Shown in pieces: positions 4,837-37,288 of a stretch of 64,000 nucleotides of DNA. The first letter of the stretch is position 1, and every line of letters starts with the position of its first letter. The notes under the pieces were generated by a model that saw nothing but the letters and a program-made list of their open reading frames with translations, was not told where the DNA came from and searched no databases. A program made the translations under genes and the position numbers. This DNA is from Escherichia coli. GTDB taxonomy: Bacteria; Pseudomonadota; Gammaproteobacteria; Enterobacterales; Enterobacteriaceae. The stretch lies in NCBI RefSeq assembly GCF_046105845.1, contig NZ_CP151004.1. One strand, given 5' to 3'.

Positions 4837-6402
4837 TTATGCTGTTTTGGTGCGAATCAGGTAGTCAAAAGCACTCAGAGAGGCTTTGGCACCTTCGCCA
4901 GTGGCGATGATGATCTGCTTGTACGGAACCGTTGTACAGTCACCCGCTGCGAACACGCCTTTCACGTTGGTTTCGCATTTCGCATCAATGATAATCTCGC
5001 CCATGCGGTTACGTTCGACTGCGCCTTCGAGCCAGTTGGTGTTCGGCAGCAGACCAATCTGCACGAAAATACCGGCCAGTTCGATGTTGTGAATATCGCC
5101 GCTGACACGATCTCGATATTCCAGACCAATGACTTTGCTGCCGTCGCCTTTCACTTCCGTAGTTTGCGCATTCAGAATAATGTCGACGTTTTTCAGGCTG
5201 CGCAGTTTGTCCTGCAGAACCTGGTCGGCTTTCATTTCTGGCGCAAATTCCAGCAGCGTTACGTGCTCAACGATACCCGCCAGGTCGATTGCCGCTTCCA
5301 CGCCGGAGTTACCGCCGCCGATAACCGCTACGCGTTTGCCTTTAAACAGCGGGCCGTCGCAGTGCGGGCAGTAGGTCACGCCTTTGGTGCGATACTGATC
5401 TTCGCCCGGAACGTTCATGTTGCGCCATTTTGCACCGGTCGCCACGATAATGCTGCGTGCTTTCAGTACCGCGCCAGAAGCTGTTTCAATCTGATGCAGA
5501 CCACCTTCAACCGCTGCCGGGATCAGTTTGCTGGCGCTCTGGCTGTCGATCACATCAACGTCGTATTCATCAACGTGAACTTTCAGCGCTCCTGCCAGCT
5601 TCTGCCCTTCAGTCTTCGGTACAGAAATGTAGTTTTCGATATCAACGGTATCGAGGATCTGACCACCAAAACGTTCGCCCATCAGACCAGTACGGATGCC
5701 TTTACGTGCGGAGTAAATTGCTGCCGCTGCACCCGCTGGGCCGGAACCGACGATTAATACGTCATAAGCATCACGCTTGTTCAGCTCTTCTGCCGCACGT
5801 TTTTCCGCGCCAGTATCAATTTTGGCGACGATTTCAGTCAACGTCATGCGACCCTGACCAAACTCTTTCCCGTTTACGAATACTGCCGGAACGCCCATCA
5901 CGTTGCGATCGGTGATTTCGTTCTGGAAGGTACCTCCGTCAATTGCAGTGTGCTTGATGCGCGGGTTCAGTACGCTCATCAGGTTCAGCGCCTGCACCAC
6001 ATCCGGGCAGTTGTGGCAAGAGAGCGAGTAATAGGTTTCGAATTCAAAATCACCGTCAATATGGCGAATCTGCTCCAGCAGAGACTGCGCTTCTTTCGAC
6101 GGATGACCACCGGTCCACAACAACGCCAGTACCAGCGAGGTAAACTCGTGGCCCAGCGGGGAACCTGCAAAACGTGGCCCCTGGTTAGAACCTGGGTTAG
6201 TGATCAGGAAAGACGGCTTACGCACCGGCAAGCTGTTATCTTCTTTAAAGGTGACTTTGTCTGACAGTTCTGCGATTTCAGCCAACAGTTCCTTGATTTC
6301 TGCCGATTTAGCGCTGTCATCCAGCGTGGCAATTAACTCAACAGGCTTGGTCAATTTCTCAAGGTAAGCCTTGAGTTGAGTTTTCATATTTGTGTCGAGC
6401 AT
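4837..6402 (-). CDS. ahpF: Alkyl hydroperoxide reductase subunit F
   Basis: ORF 4837..6432; start trimmed to MLDTNMKTQ to give 521 aa; two CxxC motifs are visible in the translation. Confidence 0.93.
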
Positions 6403-7507: not shown

Positions 7508-8254
7508 ATGTTAAAAAAGATACTTTTACTGGCTCTGCTTCCTGCAATCGCCTTCGCAGAGGAACTTCCTGATCCAGTAAAAGCGATTGAAAAACAGGGC
7601 ATTACAATCATCAAAACGTTCGATGCTCCCGGAGGAATGAAAGGTTATCTCGGCAAGTATCAGGATATGGGCGTCACCATCTACCTGACTCCAGATGGTA
7701 AGCACGCTATCTCTGGTTACATGTACAACGAGAAAGGTGAAAACCTGAGTAACACACTTATCGAAAAAGAAATTTACGCACCAGCCGGACGCGAAATGTG
7801 GCAACGGATGGAACAATCCCACTGGCTCCTCGACGGTAAAAAAGACGCGCCGGTCATTGTCTACGTCTTCGCCGATCCGTTCTGCCCATATTGTAAACAG
7901 TTCTGGCAGCAGGCTCGTCCGTGGGTAGATTCTGGCAAAGTGCAATTAAGAACATTGTTGGTTGGGGTTATCAAACCAGAAAGCCCGGCGACAGCAGCGG
8001 CAATTCTTGCCTCCAAAGATCCCGCAAAAACCTGGCAAGAATATGAAGCCTCTGGTGGCAAGCTTAAGCTAAACGTGCCTGCAAACGTAAGTACAGAGCA
8101 AATGAAAGTGTTAAGCGACAACGAGAAACTCATGGACGATCTGGGGGCAAATGTCACACCAGCTATCTATTACATGAGTAAGGAGAATACGCTGCAACAG
8201 GCCGTGGGGTTGCCCGATCAGAAAACGCTTAATATCATTATGGGGAATAAATAA
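7508..8254 (+). CDS. dsbG: Periplasmic disulfide isomerase/chaperone DsbG
   Basis: ORF 7448..8254; start chosen at the [17 protein letters not shown] signal peptide (248 aa); CPYC active-site motif is present. Confidence 0.9.
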
Positions 8255-8266
8255 AAGGTAATTCAT

Positions 8267-8302
8267 GGATGGTTGAACTATATCCCTGCTTTTCAACCAT
8301 CC
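8267..8302 (+). terminator. Strong hairpin downstream of dsbG (candidate terminator or boundary element)
   Basis: Perfect 11-bp inverted repeat ggatggttgaa / ttcaaccatcc with a 14-nt loop, 13 nt after the dsbG stop; no clear U-tract. Confidence 0.4.
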
Positions 8303-8463
8303 TAAAAAAGCATGAATTGCTCGCTCTGCCCTAAGTGGCTGTGCTATTTTAGTAAAACTTAATCCTGAGTTAAGCAAAAAAAAATAATCAATAAAAATAT
8401 ATACGCAAAAAAACATTGATTAAGTGAATATATCATGGAAGAAAAATATAACCGGAGTAGTGT

Positions 8464-9366
8464 ATGGCCAATCTCTACGACTTGAAAAAGTTCGACTTAA
8501 ATCTTCTTGTCATATTTGAGTGTATTTATCAGCATTTAAGCATTAGCAAGGCTGCTGAATCACTATATATCACCCCGTCAGCCGTGAGCCAGTCGTTACA
8601 ACGCTTACGTGCGCAATTTAATGACCCTTTATTCATTCGCTCAGGAAAAGGTATCGCGCCGACGACGACAGGGTTAAATCTGCATCACCATCTTGAGAAA
8701 AATCTCAGAGGCCTTGAACAAACAATTAATATAGTCAATAAGTCCGAACTAAAGAAAAACTTTATTATCTACGGTCCTCAGCTCATTTCTTGCTCTAATA
8801 ATAGTATGCTGATCCGCTGCCTACGGCAAGATGCCTCTGTCGAGATTGAGTGCCATGATATCCTCATGTCAGCAGAGAATGCTGAAGAACTGTTGGTTCA
8901 CCGCAAAGCCGATCTGGTGATCACCCAAATGCCAGTGATCAGCCGTTCCGTCATTTGCATGCCATTGCATACAATTCGCAATACTCTAATTTGTAGTATT
9001 AAGCATCCGCGAATTACTGACAATAGCACTTATGAACAAATTATGGCAGAAGAGTTCACCCAATTAATATCCAAATCAGCAGGAGTTGATGATATTCAAA
9101 TGGAAATAGACGAGAAGTTTATGAATCGCAAAATTTCATTTCGTGGTTCCTCTTTGCTGACAATCATTAATAGCATTGCAGTTACAGATTTACTGGGAAT
9201 AGTCCCCTATGAACTTTATAACTCCCACCGTGACTTTCTTAATTTAAAAGAGATAAAACTAGAACATCCGTTACCTTCAATAAAGCTTTACATTTCCTAT
9301 AATAAATCTTCTTTAAACAATCTGGTGTTCTCACGATTTATTGACCGTCTAAATGAGTGTTTTTGA
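8464..9366 (+). CDS. ybdO: LysR-family transcriptional regulator YbdO
   Basis: 300 aa ORF with N-terminal helix-turn-helix typical of LysR regulators; the gene is visibly AT-rich; synteny dsbG-ybdO-ybdN. Confidence 0.85.
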   Translation: MANLYDLKKFDLNLLVIFECIYQHLSISKAAESLYITPSAVSQSLQRLRAQFNDPLFIRSGKGIAPTTTGLNLHHHLEKNLRGLEQTINIVNKSELKKNFIIYGPQLISCSNNSMLIRCLRQDASVEIECHDILMSAENAEELLVHRKADLVITQMPVISRSVICMPLHTIRNTLICSIKHPRITDNSTYEQIMAEEFTQLISKSAGVDDIQMEIDEKFMNRKISFRGSSLLTIINSIAVTDLLGIVPYELYNSHRDFLNLKEIKLEHPLPSIKLYISYNKSSLNNLVFSRFIDRLNECF

Positions 9367-9512
9367 TATATAACTTCAGACAGCTACTATAACTTTCACC
9401 TATTTATTCACAGCGCGAATGAAAAATAAAACACTCTGCTTTTCAGTGTTTACTTTATAATTAACAGTCTTATCTCACTGATCACCCTGTAACGTTCAGA
9501 GAGCGTCTTCAG

Positions 9513-10733
9513 ATGTCTATTTATAAAATTCCTCTTCCGCTCAATATTCTGGAAGCTGCAAAAGAACGTATTACCTGGACACTTAACACCCTACCCCGCG
9601 TTTGTGTCTCATTTTCTGGCGGCAAAGACTCTGGTTTAATGCTGCATCTGACAGCCGAACTTGCTCGACAAATGGGCAAAAAAATCTGTGTTTTGTTTAT
9701 CGACTGGGAGGCGCAATTCTCTTGCACCATTAACTATGTTCAGTCCCTGCGCGAGTTGTACACCGATGTGATCGAAGAGTTTTACTGGGTTGCGCTCCCG
9801 CTTACGACGCAAAATTCCCTTTCACAATACCAACCCGAATGGCAGTGCTGGGAACCTGATGTCGAATGGGTACGTCAGCCCCCGCAAGATGCGATAACCG
9901 ATCCTGACTTTTTCTCCTTTTACCAGCCTGGCATGACCTTCGAACAATTTGTGCGTGAGTTTGCCGAATGGTTTTCGCAAAAACGCCCGGCGGCGATGAT
10001 GATCGGCATCCGTGCGGATGAGTCCTACAACCGTTTTGTCGCCATCGCCAGTTTAAATAAACAACGTTTTGCCGACGATAAACCCTGGACTACGGCCGCA
10101 CCAGGCGGGCATAGCTGGTACATTTACCCCATTTACGACTGGAAAGTGGCTGATATCTGGACCTGGTATGCAAATCATCAAAGTCTCTGCAACCCACTGT
10201 ATAACCTAATGTATCAGGCAGGCGTTCCTCTGCGTCATATGCGAATTTGCGAACCTTTTGGCCCGGAGCAACGACAAGGATTATGGCTCTATCACGTTAT
10301 CGAACCGGATCGCTGGGCTGCTATGTGCGCACGAGTCAGCGGGGTAAAAAGTGGCGGCATTTACGCCGGACATGACAATCATTTTTATGGTCATCGGAAA
10401 ATCCTCAAGCCCGAACATTTAGACTGGCAGGAGTATGCATTATTGCTACTCAACAGCATGCCGGAGAAAACAGCTGAGCATTATCGCAATAAAATCGCCA
10501 TTTATTTGCACTGGTATCAGAAAAAAGGCATCGAGGTTCCACAAACCCAGCAAGGGGACATTGGCGCGAAAGATATCCCCTCCTGGCGGCGAATATGCAA
10601 AGTTTTACTCAATAACGATTACTGGTGTCGGGCATTATCATTTAGCCCGACCAAAGCGAAGAACTATCAGCGTTATAACGAACGAATAAAAGGAAAACGT
10701 CAGGAATGGGGGATACTATGCAACAACGATTAA
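9513..10733 (+). CDS. ybdN: PAPS-reductase-like (adenine nucleotide alpha-hydrolase) protein YbdN, function unknown
   Basis: 406 aa ORF; SGGKDS P-loop motif near the N-terminus; recognised as YbdN (IbrA-like). Confidence 0.85.
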   Translation: MSIYKIPLPLNILEAAKERITWTLNTLPRVCVSFSGGKDSGLMLHLTAELARQMGKKICVLFIDWEAQFSCTINYVQSLRELYTDVIEEFYWVALPLTTQNSLSQYQPEWQCWEPDVEWVRQPPQDAITDPDFFSFYQPGMTFEQFVREFAEWFSQKRPAAMMIGIRADESYNRFVAIASLNKQRFADDKPWTTAAPGGHSWYIYPIYDWKVADIWTWYANHQSLCNPLYNLMYQAGVPLRHMRICEPFGPEQRQGLWLYHVIEPDRWAAMCARVSGVKSGGIYAGHDNHFYGHRKILKPEHLDWQEYALLLLNSMPEKTAEHYRNKIAIYLHWYQKKGIEVPQTQQGDIGAKDIPSWRRICKVLLNNDYWCRALSFSPTKAKNYQRYNERIKGKRQEWGILCNND

Positions 10734-11335
10734 CGCAGGATTTAACCCAATTTCTCGCCAGCTTGCCGGAAGACGATCGCATCAAAGCGATTAATGAAAT
10801 CCGCATGGCGATCCATCAGGTTAGCCCCTTTCGAGAAGAGCCAGTGGATTGCGTTCTGTGGGTTAAAAACAGCCAACTTATGCCTAATGATTACAACCCA
10901 AACAACGTGGCACCACCCGAAAAAAAACTGCTGAAAAAATCCATTGAAATAGATGGTTTTACCCAACCCATTGTGGTCACGCATACGGATAAAAATGCCC
11001 TGGAAATCGTGGATGGTTTTCACCGCCATGAAATTGGTAAAGGCTCATCATCGTTAAAATTACGCTTAAAAGGTTATTTGCCGGTGACCTGTCTGGAAGG
11101 TACGCGTAATCAACGCATCGCCGCGACTATTCGTCATAATCGCGCCCGTGGACGTCACCAAATCACTGCCATGTCAGAAATCGTCCGTGAACTCAGCCAG
11201 TTGGGATGGGACGATCATAAAATCGGCAAAGAGCTGGGAATGGACGGCGACGAAGTGCTGCGCCTGAAGCAAATTAACGGCCTGCAAGAACTGTTTGCCG
11301 ACCGTCAATTTTCCCGCGCCTGGACGGTTAAATAA
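10706..11335 (+). CDS. ybdM: ParB/sulfiredoxin-like domain protein YbdM, function unknown
   Basis: 209 aa ORF overlapping the ybdN 3-prime end by 28 nt (an alternative start at MQQR, 10718, is possible); recognised as YbdM (IbrB-like). Confidence 0.8.
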   Translation: MGDTMQQRLTQDLTQFLASLPEDDRIKAINEIRMAIHQVSPFREEPVDCVLWVKNSQLMPNDYNPNNVAPPEKKLLKKSIEIDGFTQPIVVTHTDKNALEIVDGFHRHEIGKGSSSLKLRLKGYLPVTCLEGTRNQRIAATIRHNRARGRHQITAMSEIVRELSQLGWDDHKIGKELGMDGDEVLRLKQINGLQELFADRQFSRAWTVK

Positions 11336-12496
11336 CTACAGCTGGCGCAGGCGTTCAGCTGCTGCCAGCAACGTCGATTCCTTCTTGGCAAAACAGAGAC
11401 GAATCAGTTTATGGGGGAAGGGATCGGCGCAAAACACCGACAGCGGAATCGCCGCTACACCGTGCTCCCGCGTCAGCCACTGGCAAAACTCAACGTCATC
11501 CAGGGTAGAAACCGCGCTGTAATCCACCAGCAAAAAGTATGTACCTTCACACGGTAAAATCTCCAGCCGGCTTTCATTTAAAGCATTCACCAGAATATCG
11601 CGTTTCTGGCGATAAAAGTCCGGTAACGCAAGATAATGCTCAGGTTCTGCACGTAGCATATCCGCAAGTGCCAGCTGTGCCGGGGTATTCACCGAAAAGG
11701 TCAGATACTGGTGTACCTTGCGAATTTCAGCGCTGATGGGCGCTGGCGCAACGCAATAACCCACTTTCCAGCCGGTCATATGATAGGTCTTGCCAAATGA
11801 AGAAACTGCCACCGCCCGCTCACGCAGCTGCGGATGCGCCAGCACGCTGGCATGGCCCTGTTGTGAAAAGTTGATGTGCTCGTAAACTTCATCGCTAATG
11901 ACAAAAATCTCGTGCCCGCCGATCGCCTGCCACAGAGCGGAGAAATCAGCCTGCTGCCAGACAGTTGCACTGGGGTTATGCGGGGTGTTGAGGATCACCA
12001 GTCGGGTGCGCTCGCTTAACAATGCGGCAAATTCCTGCCAGTCCACGCGAAAATGCGGTGGTTGCAGTGCAATACGTTTCACTATTCCCCCCGAAAGCGC
12101 GATGGCGGGCGCGTAACTGTCATAGCTGGGATCAAAGCAGATCACTTCATCACCATTGCGCACCAATGCGGTAATCGCTGCATATAACGCTTCCGTCGCC
12201 CCTGCCGTTACGGTGATATCGCTATCGGCATCCGGTTGATAGCCATACAGACGTTCCGTTTTCTGAGCAATCGCCTCGCGCAAGGCCTGCACGCCAGTCA
12301 TAGGCGCGTATTGGTTTGCCCCCTGGGCAACGTGGTACGCCAGCCGCTCTTGTAAATAGCGCGGACCATCAAAATCAGGAAAGCCTTGCGAAAGGTTAAT
12401 CGCCTGGTGTTGCTGCGCCAGCGCGCTCATCTGGGTGAAAATAGTGGTGCCAAGTTGTGGAAGTTTGCTTTGTGGAATCAGAGGGTTATTTGTCAT
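11336..12496 (-). CDS. ybdL: PLP-dependent methionine aminotransferase YbdL
   Basis: 386 aa class I aminotransferase ORF; synteny. Confidence 0.9.
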   Translation of the reverse strand: MTNNPLIPQSKLPQLGTTIFTQMSALAQQHQAINLSQGFPDFDGPRYLQERLAYHVAQGANQYAPMTGVQALREAIAQKTERLYGYQPDADSDITVTAGATEALYAAITALVRNGDEVICFDPSYDSYAPAIALSGGIVKRIALQPPHFRVDWQEFAALLSERTRLVILNTPHNPSATVWQQADFSALWQAIGGHEIFVISDEVYEHINFSQQGHASVLAHPQLRERAVAVSSFGKTYHMTGWKVGYCVAPAPISAEIRKVHQYLTFSVNTPAQLALADMLRAEPEHYLALPDFYRQKRDILVNALNESRLEILPCEGTYFLLVDYSAVSTLDDVEFCQWLTREHGVAAIPLSVFCADPFPHKLIRLCFAKKESTLLAAAERLRQL

Positions 12497-12604
12497 TTTT
12501 ATTGTACCTGACGAAGTTGCGTGTTGAAGGCACTATAACACGATGCTAGTATTTGGCAATCAAGACGTTTAGATGTCTAAATAAAACAATAAGGACAACA
12601 CAAC

Positions 12605-13693
12605 ATGCCTCACAATCCTATCCGCGTGGTCGTCGGCCCGGCTAACTACTTTTCACATCCAGGAAGTTTCAATCACCTGCACGATTTTTTCACTGATGAA
12701 CAGCTTTCTCACGCGGTGTGGATCTACGGCGAACGCGCCATTGCTGCGGCGCAAACAAAACTTCCGCCAGCGTTTGAACTGCCAAGGGCAAAGCATATTT
12801 TGTTTCGCGGCCATTGCAGCGAAAGCGATGTACAACAACTGGCGGCTGAGTCCGGTGACGATCGCAGCGTGGTGATTGGCGTCGGCGGCGGCGCACTGCT
12901 CGACACCGCGAAAGCCCTCGCCCGCCGTCTCGGTCTGCCGTTTGTTGCCGTTCCGACGATCGCCGCCACCTGCGCCGCCTGGACACCGCTCTCCGTCTGG
13001 TATAACGATGCCGGACAGGCGCTGCATTATGAGATTTTCGACGACGCCAATTTTATGGTGCTGGTGGAGCCAGAGATTATCCTCAACGCGCCGCACCAAT
13101 ATCTGCTGGCGGGGATCGGTGACACGCTGGCGAAATGGTATGAAGCGGTGGTGCTGGCTCCGCAACCAGAAACGTTGCCGCTAACCGTGCGGCTGGGGAT
13201 CAATAATGCGCAGGCCATTCGCGACGTCTTGTTAAACAGTAGCGAACAGGCGCTGAGCGATCAGCAAAAACAACAGTTAACGCAATCATTTTGCGATGTG
13301 GTGGATGCTATTATTGCTGGTGGTGGGATGGTCGGTGGTCTGGGCGATCGTTTTACGCGTGTGGCGGCGGCCCATGCCGTGCATAACGGTCTGACCGTTT
13401 TGCCGCAAACCGAGAAGTTTCTCCACGGCACCAAAGTCGCCTACGGAATTCTGGTGCAAAGCGCCTTGCTGGGTCAGGATGATGTGCTGGCGCAATTAAC
13501 AGAGGCGTATCAGCGTTTTCATCTGCCGACTACGCTGGCGGAGCTGGAAGTGGATATCAATAATCAGGTGGAGATCGACAAAATGATTGCCCACACCCTA
13601 CGTCCAGTGGAATCCATTCATTACCTGCCAGTCACGCTGACACCAGATACCTTGCGTGCAGCGTTCGAAAAAGTGGAATCGTTTAAAGCCTGA
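12605..13693 (+). CDS. ybdH: Iron-containing (glycerol dehydrogenase-like) hydroxycarboxylate dehydrogenase YbdH
   Basis: 362 aa ORF with the GVGGGALLD nucleotide-binding motif; synteny. Confidence 0.88.
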   Translation: MPHNPIRVVVGPANYFSHPGSFNHLHDFFTDEQLSHAVWIYGERAIAAAQTKLPPAFELPRAKHILFRGHCSESDVQQLAAESGDDRSVVIGVGGGALLDTAKALARRLGLPFVAVPTIAATCAAWTPLSVWYNDAGQALHYEIFDDANFMVLVEPEIILNAPHQYLLAGIGDTLAKWYEAVVLAPQPETLPLTVRLGINNAQAIRDVLLNSSEQALSDQQKQQLTQSFCDVVDAIIAGGGMVGGLGDRFTRVAAAHAVHNGLTVLPQTEKFLHGTKVAYGILVQSALLGQDDVLAQLTEAYQRFHLPTTLAELEVDINNQVEIDKMIAHTLRPVESIHYLPVTLTPDTLRAAFEKVESFKA

Positions 13694-13702
13694 CGTACAC
13701 AT

Positions 13703-13900
13703 TTAGCAGCAGCGCGCGCCGCCTTTTCCACCGTAGCGCGCGTCCTGCCGCTCACGGAAAAACTCCTCGTAGGTCATCGGCGTTTGATCGGGATGGTTAA
13801 CCCGCATATGTTCGACATAGTTGTCGTAATCAGGCATACCAATCATCAGCTTCGCCGCCTGACCTAAATATTTTCCGGCTTTTGCCAGTGAATCAAACAT
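13703..13900 (-). CDS. ybdD: Small protein YbdD (DUF466), partner of CstA
   Basis: 65 aa ORF immediately downstream of cstA on the same strand. Confidence 0.85.
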
Positions 13901-14052
13901 CAATACCTCCGGTAAACAGGTTGCTGATAGAGTGCATTAATAGCTATCAACGCGCTCGGTCAGTCCCCTCGCCCCACAGGAGAGAGGGTTAGGGTGAGGG
14001 GGAACCCTCGGCACCATGCCAACATTCGCCAACATCCCCCCTCACTCTGACT

Positions 14053-16158
14053 TTAGTGCGCGCCTTTCGCCTGCGCCACGATCTCTTCGACATTTTCCGG
14101 CATCGGCTCATACGGCGTTTCTTTCGCCGTTGGCTTCGGCTCTTTCAATGCCGCCAGTGCAGTCTTAATCGAGAACAGCGCCAGAACCACCACGACCACC
14201 ATAAAGAAGATGGTTAACCCGGCATCCAGACGGTTGTTGAACACCAGTTGCGCCAGTTGTGACTCAGTATACTGCGACGGAATATTGCCGCTGTCGATCA
14301 TTGCCTGGAACTTGTTAGCAATCGCCAGGAAGCCGACCTTCGCATCCGGGCTAAACGCTTTCTGCCAGCCAGCGGTCAGAGTACAAATCAGCAGCCAGGC
14401 CGTTGGTACCAGCGCCACCCAGGCGTAACGTTGACGTTTCATTTTGAACAGCACCACAGCACAGAGCATCAGCGCCATCCCTGCCAGCATCTGGTTGGCA
14501 ATACCAAACAGCGGCCACAAGGTGTTAATACCGCCCAGCGGATCGACCACGCCCTGATGCAGGAAGTAGCCCCACGCCAGCACGCACAGCGCCGTTGCCA
14601 GCAGGTTAGCAGGCAGTGAATCGGTCCTTTTCAGGCCCGGAGACACCACGCCCAGCAGATCCTGCAACATAAAGCGCGCAGCACGCGTACCTGCATCCAC
14701 CGCCGTCAGAATAAACAGTGCTTCAAACAGAATGGCGAAGTGATACCAGAACGCCACATCCATCATGCCGCCCAGCGCACCGTGCAGAATGTAGGCCATC
14801 CCCACCGCCAGGGTCGGCGCACCGCCCGCACGGGAAATGATCGACTGTTCACCCACTTCGCTGGCAATCTGGTTGAGCGTATCTGGTGTAATGCTAAATC
14901 CCCAGCTACTCACCACTTGCGCTGCAGAAGCGACCACATCCGCCGTCCCTGCCGGAGCCAGCACCGCCATCGGGCTGTTCATAGCGAAGTACACACCCGG
15001 ATCGATGATACAGGCGGAAACCAGCGCCATAATCGCTACGAAGGATTCCATTAACATCCCGCCGTAGCCGATAAAACACGCCTGCCCTTCGTTCGCCAGC
15101 ATCTTCGGCGTGGTACCGGAAGAGATCAGCGCATGGAAGCCAGACACCGCGCCACAAGCGATGGTGATAAACAGGAACGGGAACAGGTTACCGGTCCATA
15201 CCGGGCCAGTGCCATCAACAAATTTGGTCAGCGCAGGCATGGTCAGCGTCGGGCGCATGATCAGAATGCCTACCGCCAGACCGACGATAGTCCCGATTTT
15301 CAAGAAGGTTGAGAGGTAGTCACGCGGGGCCAGCAGCAACCACACCGGCAGCACCGCCGCCACGAAGCCGTAACCCACCAGCATCCAGGTCAGCTGCACG
15401 CCGGTAAAGTCAAAGTACGGTGCCCAGGTCGGACTTTCTGCCACCCAGCCGCCAGAGATAATGGCGAAAATCAGGAACACCAGGCCAATCACCGACACTT
15501 CGCCAATACGCCCCGGACGCAGATAACGCAGGTAGATCCCCATAAACAGCGCCAGCGGAATGGTGAACGCAACGGTATACGTTCCCCACGGGCTATGAGT
15601 CAGGGCTTTCACCACGATCATCGCCAGTACTGCAAGGATAATGACCATGATCATAAAGCAGGCCACCAGCGCTATCACCCCGGCGGTTGGCCCCATCTCT
15701 TCTTTGACCAACTCACCCAGCGAGCGACCATCGCGGCGCGTAGAAACAAACAGCACCATGAAATCCTGCACCGCACCGGCGAGAACCACCCCGGCGAGCA
15801 GCCAGATCATCCCCGGCAGGTAGCCCATTTGCGCTGCCAGCACCGGCCCAACCAGCGGACCTGCTCCGGCAATGGCCGCAAAATGGTGACCGAACAGCAC
15901 TTTCTTGTCCGTCGGCACATAGTCCAGCCCGTCGTTATGGCGCACCGCTGGCGTCATACGCGTCGGGTCAACCGCCAGCACATTTTTGGCGATATACAGA
16001 CCATAAAAACGGTAAGCGATCAGATAGATACAGACCGACGCCACCACAATCCACAGCGCGTTGATCTGTTCCCCACGATTTAAAGCAATATATCCCAGAG
16101 CAAATGCTCCCATTACAGAGAGCACTGTCCAGACGAGGTATTTCCCTGATTTGTTCAT
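14053..16158 (-). CDS. cstA: Carbon starvation protein A (peptide/pyruvate transporter)
   Basis: 701 aa polytopic membrane protein ORF recognised as CstA. Confidence 0.93.
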   Translation of the reverse strand: MNKSGKYLVWTVLSVMGAFALGYIALNRGEQINALWIVVASVCIYLIAYRFYGLYIAKNVLAVDPTRMTPAVRHNDGLDYVPTDKKVLFGHHFAAIAGAGPLVGPVLAAQMGYLPGMIWLLAGVVLAGAVQDFMVLFVSTRRDGRSLGELVKEEMGPTAGVIALVACFMIMVIILAVLAMIVVKALTHSPWGTYTVAFTIPLALFMGIYLRYLRPGRIGEVSVIGLVFLIFAIISGGWVAESPTWAPYFDFTGVQLTWMLVGYGFVAAVLPVWLLLAPRDYLSTFLKIGTIVGLAVGILIMRPTLTMPALTKFVDGTGPVWTGNLFPFLFITIACGAVSGFHALISSGTTPKMLANEGQACFIGYGGMLMESFVAIMALVSACIIDPGVYFAMNSPMAVLAPAGTADVVASAAQVVSSWGFSITPDTLNQIASEVGEQSIISRAGGAPTLAVGMAYILHGALGGMMDVAFWYHFAILFEALFILTAVDAGTRAARFMLQDLLGVVSPGLKRTDSLPANLLATALCVLAWGYFLHQGVVDPLGGINTLWPLFGIANQMLAGMALMLCAVVLFKMKRQRYAWVALVPTAWLLICTLTAGWQKAFSPDAKVGFLAIANKFQAMIDSGNIPSQYTESQLAQLVFNNRLDAGLTIFFMVVVVVLALFSIKTALAALKEPKPTAKETPYEPMPENVEEIVAQAKGAH

Positions 16159-36684: not shown

Positions 36685-36784
36685 GTTTATATTGCCTCCA
36701 TGCGAAGAAGGGACTACCATCCAAATTGTTCAGGTTTGGGTAGGTAGCCCCAGGGTTGATAGAAATATCGTCCTGGGGCTTCAT
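36596..36784 (-). CDS. mok-like overlapping reading frame (modulator of killing), copy 1
   Basis: 62-codon frame starting upstream of and overlapping hok in another frame, as in hok/mok/sok loci; GGAAAG Shine-Dalgarno upstream. Confidence 0.6.
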
Positions 36785-37188: not shown

Positions 37189-37288
37189 GTTTATATTGCC
37201 TCCATGCGAAGAAGGGACTACCATCCAAATTGTTTGGGTTTGGAGTGGCAGCCCCAGGGTTGATAGAAATATCGTCCTGGGGCTTCAT
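37100..37288 (-). CDS. mok-like overlapping reading frame, copy 2
   Basis: 62-codon frame overlapping hok copy 2; differs from copy 1 in its N-terminal part (GAATPNPNN versus GATYPNLNN). Confidence 0.55.

Follow-up and report, generated by a model that had tools for sequence, protein, structure and literature searches.

We analysed a 64,000-nucleotide stretch of Escherichia coli DNA (the window), in which ybdM and ybdL lie tail to tail on opposite strands (Table 1). Positions 11330-11341 read aaa TAA CTA cag. The TAA stop of ybdM is directly followed by CTA, the complement of the TAG stop of ybdL. The two reading frames share no base, so that they do not form a convergent overlap in the strict sense. 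The first-pass annotation had reported abutting stop codons that leave no intergenic DNA for a terminator. Both statements were borne out by the sequence, by the list of open reading frames and by the RefSeq annotations of three genomes, strain 1190, UTI89 and K-12 MG1655 (ybdL 633586..634746 +, ybdM 634747..635376 -), where the layout is identical.

Table 1. Features at and around the ybdM/ybdL junction (positions in the window; +, - or. for strand)
Feature	Positions	Strand	Basis
citR (8464-9366) and ybdN (9513-10733), remainder of the dsbG-ybdL block	8464..10733	+	ORF list, RefSeq
ybdM CDS, 209 aa, IbrB-like / ParB_N protein, stop TAA 11333-11335	10706..11335	+	ORF list, RefSeq
C-rich, G-poor stretch, candidate Rho loading, ybdL-sense, +41 to +160 past ybdL stop, antisense to ybdM	11176..11295	-	base composition
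Second hairpin, 27-63 nt past ybdL stop, within last 20 codons of ybdM, weak U-rich tail	11273..11309	-	folding
Interrupted U-rich tail UGUAGUUAUUUAACC after boundary hairpin, ybdL-sense RNA	11326..11340	-	hairpin-plus-tail scan, folding
Junction of two stop codons, TAA then CTA, spacer 0 nt	11333..11338	.	sequence reading
ybdL CDS, 386 aa, methionine-oxo-acid transaminase, stop TAG (CTA) at 11338-11336	11336..12496	-	ORF list, RefSeq
Imperfect palindrome in last 10 codons of ybdL, hairpin in both transcripts	11341..11369	.	folding
C-rich, G-poor stretch, candidate Rho loading, ybdM-sense, +81 to +280 past ybdM stop, antisense to ybdL	11416..11615	+	base composition

The stop positions, on which these statements depend, are upheld on both sides of the junction. 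Residues 1-386 of YbdL align with the 386-residue chain of PDB 1U08, and the Pfam domain Aminotran_1_2 spans residues 32-383. YbdM matches Pfam ParB_N (E = 2.7e-05). A plasmid-borne homologue from Pantoea, 208 aa long and in an unrelated context, ends in ...FSEAWTVA as compared to ...FSRAWTVK in YbdM, and the C-terminal W-T-V-K is invariant or nearly so across 46 species. When the junction was searched for with a 100-base query, it proved colinear in 5416 of 5426 complete E. coli genomes. If a stop were lost, readthrough would lengthen ybdM by 73 codons or ybdL by 53. Both stops are true protein ends.

Junctions of this kind are common in the window. Of its nine convergent junctions, five have spacers in the range of -4 to +9 nt (ybdM/ybdL 0, hcxA/ybdD 9, fepB/entS 3, fepC/fepE -4 and fimZ/sfmF 2), and 75 overlapping convergent pairs have been counted in E. 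coli (Huvet and Stumpf 2014, PMC4161906). The abutment is no more than chance would give and is an ordinary arrangement.

The junction is also old. A zero spacer was found in 44 of 46 ybdM-bearing species from more than ten genera, the sole change being one 13-nt insertion common to two Citrobacter species. The stop codons themselves vary among species (TAG, TAA or TGA for ybdL, TAA or TAG for ybdM). Because the same junction spans Escherichia, Salmonella, Citrobacter, Enterobacter, Klebsiella, Raoultella, Kluyvera and others, the acquisition of ybdNM is ancient, not recent. Across genera, the citR-ybdN-ybdM block between dsbG and ybdL, in which ybdN and ybdM overlap by 28 nt, occurs or is missing as a unit. 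In Kosakonia, ybdL faces dsbG directly, and in some genera a LysR gene alone stands in between. Together with ybdNM-like pairs on 774 plasmid records, these layouts show insertable behaviour and support the earlier description of ybdNM as an acquired module. In PADLOC, YbdNM gave faint matches only, to DndC, BrxP and MTase.

The first-pass annotation had further concluded that antisense overlap of the two transcripts is obligate. This conclusion holds. With a zero spacer some transcript overlap is logically unavoidable, any RNA with a complete stop codon entering the opposite gene. In addition, the ybdL-ybdM pair is one of the 165 convergent excludons detected in at least 50% of 58 MG1655 transcriptomes (ExcludonFinder, NAR 2025, PMC12288877), as are the neighbouring pairs entS-fepB and ybdD-hcxA. 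Short or absent intergenic distances are typical of this class; its mean spacer is 95 nt, which places ybdL-ybdM at its short extreme (PMC12288877). As the layout stands in the K-12 reference annotation and the transcript overlap is catalogued, both are already known. The listing says nothing on repression, because a coverage-based caller scores an overlap at a zero spacer once both genes are expressed.

Where the two RNAs end was approached from their folding. In a 50-nt context, the palindrome at the end of ybdL has a minimum free energy of -18.4 kcal/mol in the ybdL sense (z = -2.45) and -18.8 kcal/mol in the ybdM sense (z = -2.44), 4 of 200 shuffled sequences folding as well. On the ybdL strand (11369-11341) it forms a G+C-rich hairpin of -15.8 kcal/mol. 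In four Escherichia loci this hairpin ranks in the top 0-4% of 33-nt ybdL windows. K-12 has the same stem, with z values of only -0.8 and -1.5 in a 61-nt context. Directly after the hairpin on the ybdL strand comes UGUAGUUAUUU, made up of the two stop codons and the last Lys codon of ybdM. The longer tail given in Table 1 consists of bases of the last Leu codon of ybdL, both stop codons and the antisense of the final Lys codon of ybdM. In sequences with ybdM the 12 nt from the stop hold 5.6 T on average, as compared to 3.2 in species without it. No uninterrupted U-tract was found on either side, the tail of the ybdL strand being broken up and that of the ybdM strand reading AACGUCGAUUCC; true terminators in the same window carry TTTTT(T) runs. 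The stem lies inside ybdL coding codons and not in untranslated RNA, where an intrinsic terminator would be placed. A second hairpin, inside ybdM, has an energy of -16.1 kcal/mol (-19.9 kcal/mol in a 56-nt context, z = -2.3), and its complementary strand folds weakly (-11.1, z = -0.75).

A consensus terminator scan did not call the boundary site. It returned 5 sites as compared to 6.8 expected, none suitably placed. In a separate scan for hairpins with tails, first of the locus and then of the whole window, the + strand yielded no terminator-like hairpin from 11336 to 14100 at the thresholds applied. Sites as good as the junction candidate numbered 74 in the 128 kb of strand covered, most of them intragenic. 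Three hairpin-plus-U-rich sites fall within 200 nt on the ybdL strand, where about 0.15 would be expected at the window-wide density. A canonical intrinsic terminator was rejected, since the consensus scan misses it and the candidate at the junction resembles the intragenic background matches. A conserved RNA structure at the junction was rejected as well. RNAalifold on 44 species gave a consensus energy of -2.3 kcal/mol and placed no stem there. In the same 44 species, the E. coli stem positions pair in 71.5% of cells as compared to 71.7% with shuffled partners, with no excess of compensatory changes, and Rfam gave no match at E <= 1 in 10400-12700. The sole terminator-like element of the junction, which is new in this analysis, sits in the last codons of ybdL and has no comparative support. 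Thus, the earlier claim that no room is left for a terminator stands as far as intergenic DNA and canonical terminators on either strand are concerned, but the coding DNA does hold a stable palindromic hairpin. The intragenic search that had been proposed turned up hairpins in the 3′ ends of both ybdL and ybdM, of which the one in ybdL is not a canonical terminator and shows no covariation. Given the coding hairpin and the UGUAGUUAUUU that follows it, the overlap could be short. A sigma-28 promoter at the junction, suggested by an RpoF SELEX peak that lies in ybdL about 40 bp from its 3′ end, was rejected, the best match (11/16 at 11305, + strand) being at chance level for the region.

The palindrome might act as a bidirectional terminator embedded in coding sequence, of a type reported from convergent gene pairs of E. 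coli (Ju et al. 2019; Wang et al. 2022). Polymerases arriving from both sides would be paused there and released by head-on and trailing collisions, the U-rich run of the ybdL strand would add an intrinsic-like release, and the overlap would be only about 30-45 nt long. We regard this as rather unlikely, even though several observations agree with it. The hairpin is as stable on one strand as on the other, and its position coincides exactly with the gene boundary. Where ybdM is present, folding of the last 33 nt of ybdL is stronger than in species without it (mean -11.6 versus -8.5 kcal/mol; 57% versus 12% in the top decile), but comparisons of species with and without ybdM are confounded by phylogeny. 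Kosakonia, which does not carry ybdNM, has a compact hairpin followed by UUAUUU between ybdL and dsbG. Moreover, the class observed by SEnd-seq is described as not intrinsic-like and Rho-independent (Wang et al. 2022, bioRxiv 10.1101/2022.10.23.513370). Against this, the consensus structure is negligible among the 44 species and pairing does not exceed that of shuffled partners. The z values fall in K-12, sites of equal quality are scattered within genes, and the trailing ribosome can reach the hairpin, which lies in translated sequence. Highly expressed pairs are those to which the collision model is best suited, whereas ybdNM is barely expressed. Finally, neither the Term-seq supplements of Adams 2021 nor the TRS tables name a mapped 3′ end for ybdL, ybdM, ybdN or hcxA, and a coordinate search of the TRS tables gave no terminus at 634.5-634.8 kb; these missing ends may simply reflect low expression.

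Base composition points rather to Rho. In the ybdM-sense RNA past the ybdM stop, the C/G ratio of the candidate loading stretch is 1.27-1.75, with its peak at +121 to +200 (C 35%, G 20%). In the ybdL-sense RNA, it is 1.41-1.80 (C 34%, G 19%), with 1.80 at +81 to +160. Both peaks extend over about 80 nt and, at 1.75 and 1.80, reach or exceed the 95th percentile of the window (1.67), though the C/G ratio is a crude proxy for a rut site. In PMC5909445 and PMC11551753, Rho is described as acting on untranslated nascent RNA, antisense RNA included. Judged from composition, both RNAs are most likely ended by Rho within the opposite gene. The stability of the hairpin in Escherichia and the three clustered sites of the ybdL strand leave room for a hairpin-based mechanism.

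A different question is whether the zero spacer is maintained by selection. It could enforce a true excludon, in which colliding polymerases and duplex cleavage by RNase III lead to mutual repression, and would thereby couple methionine-salvage transamination inversely to the ParB-like/PAPS-reductase module. The persistence of the zero spacer in 44 species is in line with this idea when set against the neighbouring convergent ybdD/hcxA junction, which has taken up insertions repeatedly and shows 12 different lengths in 18 of the same genomes (8-859 nt overall, 8-11 nt in Escherichia and one Citrobacter). So is the presence of the pair in the MG1655 excludome. CitR represses ybdNM, and citR deletion raises ybdN by 5.5 but ybdM by only 2.5 log2 units, the base means of the two being very low at 36 and 20 (PMC9068703); damping from the ybdL side could account for the smaller effect on ybdM. 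Nevertheless, the two Citrobacter species tolerate a 13-nt spacer, and the excludon listing is uninformative on repression. No change of ybdL upon ybdNM derepression has been reported; ybdL, b0600 and hcxA are absent from all text and tables of the citR-deletion paper (PMC9068703). These data, from an experiment not designed for the purpose, lend no support to the mutual transcriptional interference that the first-pass annotation had considered possible. YbdL and YbdNM are not known to be functionally linked. In addition, where ybdNM is missing (Kosakonia, Pluralibacter and others), ybdL lies just as tightly against the unrelated dsbG, with spacers of 4-30 nt. Harmless insertions have a single bond as their target. 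At the indel rate of the ybdD/hcxA junction, roughly one event at such a target is unsurprising and fits neutrality, an argument that is semi-quantitative. Both the persistence of the zero spacer in 44 of 46 species and its explanation without selection are new in this analysis, and we hold the selected excludon to be improbable. A combination of both readings is more improbable still. It would have the hairpin and U-rich run work as a coding-sequence terminator and the zero spacing selected across Enterobacteriaceae, with a fixed short overlap making expression of ybdL and of the ParB-like/PAPS-reductase genes mutually exclusive. An error of annotation or sequencing, with one true stop elsewhere, can practically be discarded as the cause of the abutment, in view of the coordinates shared by three independent RefSeq genomes and by the complete genomes, the length of the crystallized YbdL chain, the end of its Pfam domain, the like end of the plasmid-borne YbdM homologue and the stop positions kept across 46 species while the stop codons vary.

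Overall, the junction is probably an ordinary tight convergent one, old and frozen in place, with a Rho-ended overlap of little regulatory weight. In the ancestor of Escherichia, Salmonella, Citrobacter, Enterobacter and Klebsiella, a native ybdM end would have been placed against the native ybdL end. The spacer would have stayed at zero because the C-termini are constrained in length, because stop loss adds 53-73 residues and because harmless insertions have only one bond to enter. As there is neither intergenic DNA nor a canonical intrinsic terminator, each RNA polymerase is expected to pass its own stop and continue along the opposite gene in antisense. The run-on RNA would not be translated. 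Within 40-280 nt its composition turns C-rich and G-poor, and there Rho would most likely end it. The resulting 3′ overlaps would measure tens to a few hundred nucleotides, and the palindromic hairpin at the end of ybdL may contribute pausing or weak termination. Because CitR and H-NS hold ybdNM very low, the overlap is probably of little regulatory importance. The significance of the finding is small, the layout being in the K-12 annotation and the overlap being catalogued. At most, the locus could serve as a convenient natural test case for the regulatory cost or benefit of tight convergent junctions.

The junction can be compared with several known systems. Like the short convergent overlaps of prokaryotes (PMC4161906), it appears as a product of the same genome compaction, with the difference that those pairs share bases whereas the ybdM and ybdL frames merely touch. 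With convergent excludons it shares the opposite-strand, tail-to-tail arrangement and is itself a listed member, a listing that denotes overlap of RNA-seq coverage and not repression, RNase III processing or the position of a terminator. As in the overlapping bidirectional terminators seen by SEnd-seq, a non-canonical stem-loop that can form in both transcripts stands at the gene boundary. However, those terminators lie between genes, whereas the ybdL stem-loop lies inside the reading frame, its stem shows no covariation in relatives and the ybdNM partner is very weakly expressed. There is a likeness to Rho-dependent termination of untranslated and antisense RNA as well, the ybdM and ybdL RNAs past their stops being likewise untranslated, antisense and, within 40-280 nt, C-rich and G-poor.

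The stop codons of ybdM and ybdL face each other with zero bases between them. Positions 11324-11344, read directly from the sequence, are ...acggtt aaa TAA CTA cag ctg..., and the six-frame ORF list gives the same ends, which confirms what the first-pass annotation had stated. The region was matched in 5420 of the 5426 complete E. coli genomes (best match strain 1190, 99.3%), and a 100-base junction-centred query was colinear in 5416 of 5426. The identical abutting layout is annotated by RefSeq in strain 1190, K-12 MG1655 (ybdL 633586..634746, ybdM 634747..635376) and UTI89. The complete-genome record of E. coli Ecol_517 (NZ_CP018965.1) is linearised exactly at this junction, its base 1 matching the first nucleotide of the ybdL stop.

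Features at the ybdM/ybdL junction and elsewhere in the window
Feature	Coordinates	Strand	Description	Source
ybdM	10706..11335	+	209 aa; stop TAA 11333-11335	six-frame ORF list
ybdL	11336..12496	-	386 aa; stop TAG 11338-11336	six-frame ORF list
ybdN/ybdM overlap	10706-10733	same strand	28 nt	
Boundary hairpin	11341-11369		imperfect palindrome, last 10 ybdL codons	hairpin scan
Hairpin-plus-U-rich sites	11476-11437; 11369-11341; 11307-11275	-	three sites within 200 nt (11275-11476)	
Best sigma-28 promoter match	11305	+	11/16, aimed into ybdL antisense	
Identical 35-nt hairpins	36746-36780; 37250-37284		-22 kcal/mol, 504 nt apart	
ybdM/ybdL junction			spacer 0 nt	
fimZ/sfmF junction			spacer 2 nt	
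fepB/entS junction			spacer 3 nt	
hcxA/ybdD junction	13693-13703		spacer 9 nt	
fepC/fepE junction			spacer -4 nt	

Both stops are true protein ends. YbdL aligned with the PDB 1U08 chain (386 residues) over residues 1-386, and its Pfam aminotransferase domain extends to residue 383. The C-terminal (A/G)-W-T-(V/I)-K of YbdM shows no or almost no variation across 46 species, and a 208-aa homologue from a Pantoea agglomerans plasmid, where the surroundings are unrelated and the gene is followed by ordinary non-coding DNA, ends in ...FSEAWTVA and a stop. Since both ends are native, the junction arose by joining two native gene ends and not from one reading frame lengthening until a stop.

Overall, this is an ordinary tight convergent junction, previously annotated and catalogued. 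Five of the nine convergent junctions readable in the 64-kb window are equally tight (see table), and in an E. coli census, 75 of 4,131 adjacent pairs were convergent and overlapping (PMC4161906). ExcludonFinder (NAR 2025, PMC12288877) lists ybdL-ybdM among 165 convergent excludons detected in 50% or more of 58 MG1655 transcriptomes, together with the neighbours entS-fepB and ybdD-hcxA. The overlapping antisense transcription that had been the central inference from the abutting stops is therefore already in print.

We then compared 80 ybdL loci from different species, in each of which citR, ybdN, ybdM, hcxA and dsbG were located. ybdM was convergent to ybdL in 46 of the 80, with a spacer of exactly zero in 44 of these 46; a 13-nt insertion between the stops is common to two Citrobacter. 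The stop codons vary under the zero spacer (TAG, TAA or TGA for ybdL; TAA or TAG for ybdM). Genera with convergent ybdM include Escherichia, Salmonella, Citrobacter, Enterobacter, Klebsiella and Raoultella, and also Kluyvera, Lelliottia, Pseudocitrobacter, Superficieibacter and Huaxiibacter. When ybdNM is missing, ybdL lies directly opposite dsbG, lies opposite a lone LysR gene (five loci), or is followed by a same-strand gene in Pantoea, Mixta, Winslowiella and Erwinia (loci L059, L062, L065 and L076-L081). The latter ORF, of 255-271 aa, begins 12-60 nt upstream of the ybdL stop and contains LPEMFTTGF; we take it to resemble a C-N hydrolase or omega-amidase. The ybdL-dsbG spacer measures 27-30 nt in most Kosakonia, with a compact hairpin, whereas K. 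cowanii and Pluralibacter gergoviae have a spacer of just 4 nt. In Kosakonia and relatives (comparison loci L007-L015 and L032, ~5162-5192), the spacer hairpin is GC-rich and is followed by UUAUUU, the antisense of the AAA-TAA end of dsbG. The U-run opposite ybdL is made from the Lys-stop of the facing gene in both contexts (dsbG, ybdM).

Constancy of the zero spacer across genera is a minor new point, and a neutral explanation is sufficient for it. Without its stop, ybdM would be longer by 73 codons and ybdL by 53. The C-termini of both proteins are fixed in length, and an insertion harmless to both is possible at one phosphodiester bond only. Whereas the ybdL/ybdM junction is frozen, the ybdD/hcxA junction of the same genomes (loci L003-L053) is hypervariable. 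Its length took 12 values across 18 genomes: Escherichia has 8-9 nt, Salmonella 35 nt and Citrobacter from 11 (in one) to 191 nt. Its inserts include REP-like palindromic ones (35-191 nt) and one of 859 nt, which occurs in three Pseudocitrobacter loci. Given several events on this target of about 10 nt, roughly one event on a one-bond target is unsurprising, by a rough argument that ignores phylogeny. The conserved zero spacer probably does not imply selection.

The description of ybdNM as an acquired module stands insofar as the block is insertable, with the qualification that its acquisition is older than the split of the ybdM-bearing genera. It is supported by the order dsbG-(citR-ybdN-ybdM)-ybdL, by the block occurring as a unit or not at all, by the low G+C of citR and by 774 plasmid records with ybdM-like genes, mainly from Klebsiella, Escherichia and Ralstonia. 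The G+C content of citR and its flanks (8300-9700) is 33-42%, as compared to 52-57% for ybdL; this A+T-richness fits the stated regulation of citR by H-NS (PMC9068703). On a conjugative IncF plasmid of P. agglomerans (NZ_CP143405.1, locus L086, 805-3811), a ybdN/ybdM-like pair, consisting of a DUF3440 protein and a ParB-like protein 59% identical to YbdM, adjoins a tyrosine recombinase. The genes of this pair overlap by merely 1 nt, as compared to the ybdN/ybdM overlap of the window, also found in K-12 (635349-635376).

CitR represses ybdNM, and deletion of citR raised ybdN by 5.5 and ybdM by 2.5 log2 (base means 36 and 20; PMC9068703). That ybdM rose less than ybdN would be consistent with damping from the ybdL side, though other, trivial explanations exist. 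Neither ybdL, b0600 nor hcxA is mentioned anywhere in PMC9068703, which thus gives no sign of ybdL disturbance on ybdNM derepression. The putative mutual interference between ybdL and ybdNM is a possibility.

Where, then, may transcription end? The first-pass annotation saw no room for a terminator; there are indeed no intergenic bases, but elements embedded in coding sequence had been overlooked. A consensus terminator scan of 8000-14200 returned five sites against 6.8 expected by chance, none suitably placed. A hairpin scan yielded the boundary hairpin, a palindrome in the ybdL 3′ end after which the ybdL strand reads UGUAGUUAUUU, and nothing terminator-like on the ybdM strand from 11336 to 14100. 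This hairpin folds with -18.4 and -18.8 kcal/mol on the two strands (z about -2.45) and ranks in the top 0-4% of ybdL 33-nt windows in four Escherichia loci. The terminal 33 nt of ybdL fold on average with -11.6 kcal/mol in species that carry ybdM versus -8.5 in species that lack it, a difference confounded by relatedness. RNAalifold found no stem common to the aligned species at the junction, and pairing of the E. coli stem across 44 species was 71.5%, versus 71.7% for shuffled partners. Sites of equal quality number 74 in 128 kb of strand, mostly intragenic; clean stems and T-runs characterise the genuine terminators of the window.

Three hairpin-plus-U-rich sites cluster on the minus strand; about 0.15 would be expected at window-wide density, the cluster having been counted after the sites had been seen. 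Shimada et al. 2017 reported an RpoF (sigma-28) holoenzyme SELEX peak in ybdL, ~40 bp from the stop (window ~11375; K-12 U00096.2 633930); the best promoter match near the junction is at chance level and was rejected. In near-identical strain 1190, two tandem hokE toxin loci are annotated at the positions of the two identical 35-nt hairpins.

The Adams 2021 Term-seq supplements and the TRS tables showed no mapped 3′ end at this locus. The most likely route would be Rho-dependent termination inside the opposite gene. PMC5909445 and PMC11551753 describe Rho as acting on untranslated RNA, antisense RNA included, and the RNAs downstream of both stops are untranslated, antisense and C-rich/G-poor. 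This composition begins soon past the stop in both; C/G peaks at 1.75 in ybdM-sense RNA (+121..+200) and at 1.80 in ybdL-sense RNA (+81..+160), the 95th percentile for the window being 1.67. The boundary hairpin may add pausing. This hairpin, which folds on both strands, could also belong to the SEnd-seq class of bidirectional elements, although that model favours highly expressed pairs. Elements of this class are described as unlike intrinsic terminators and as Rho-independent.
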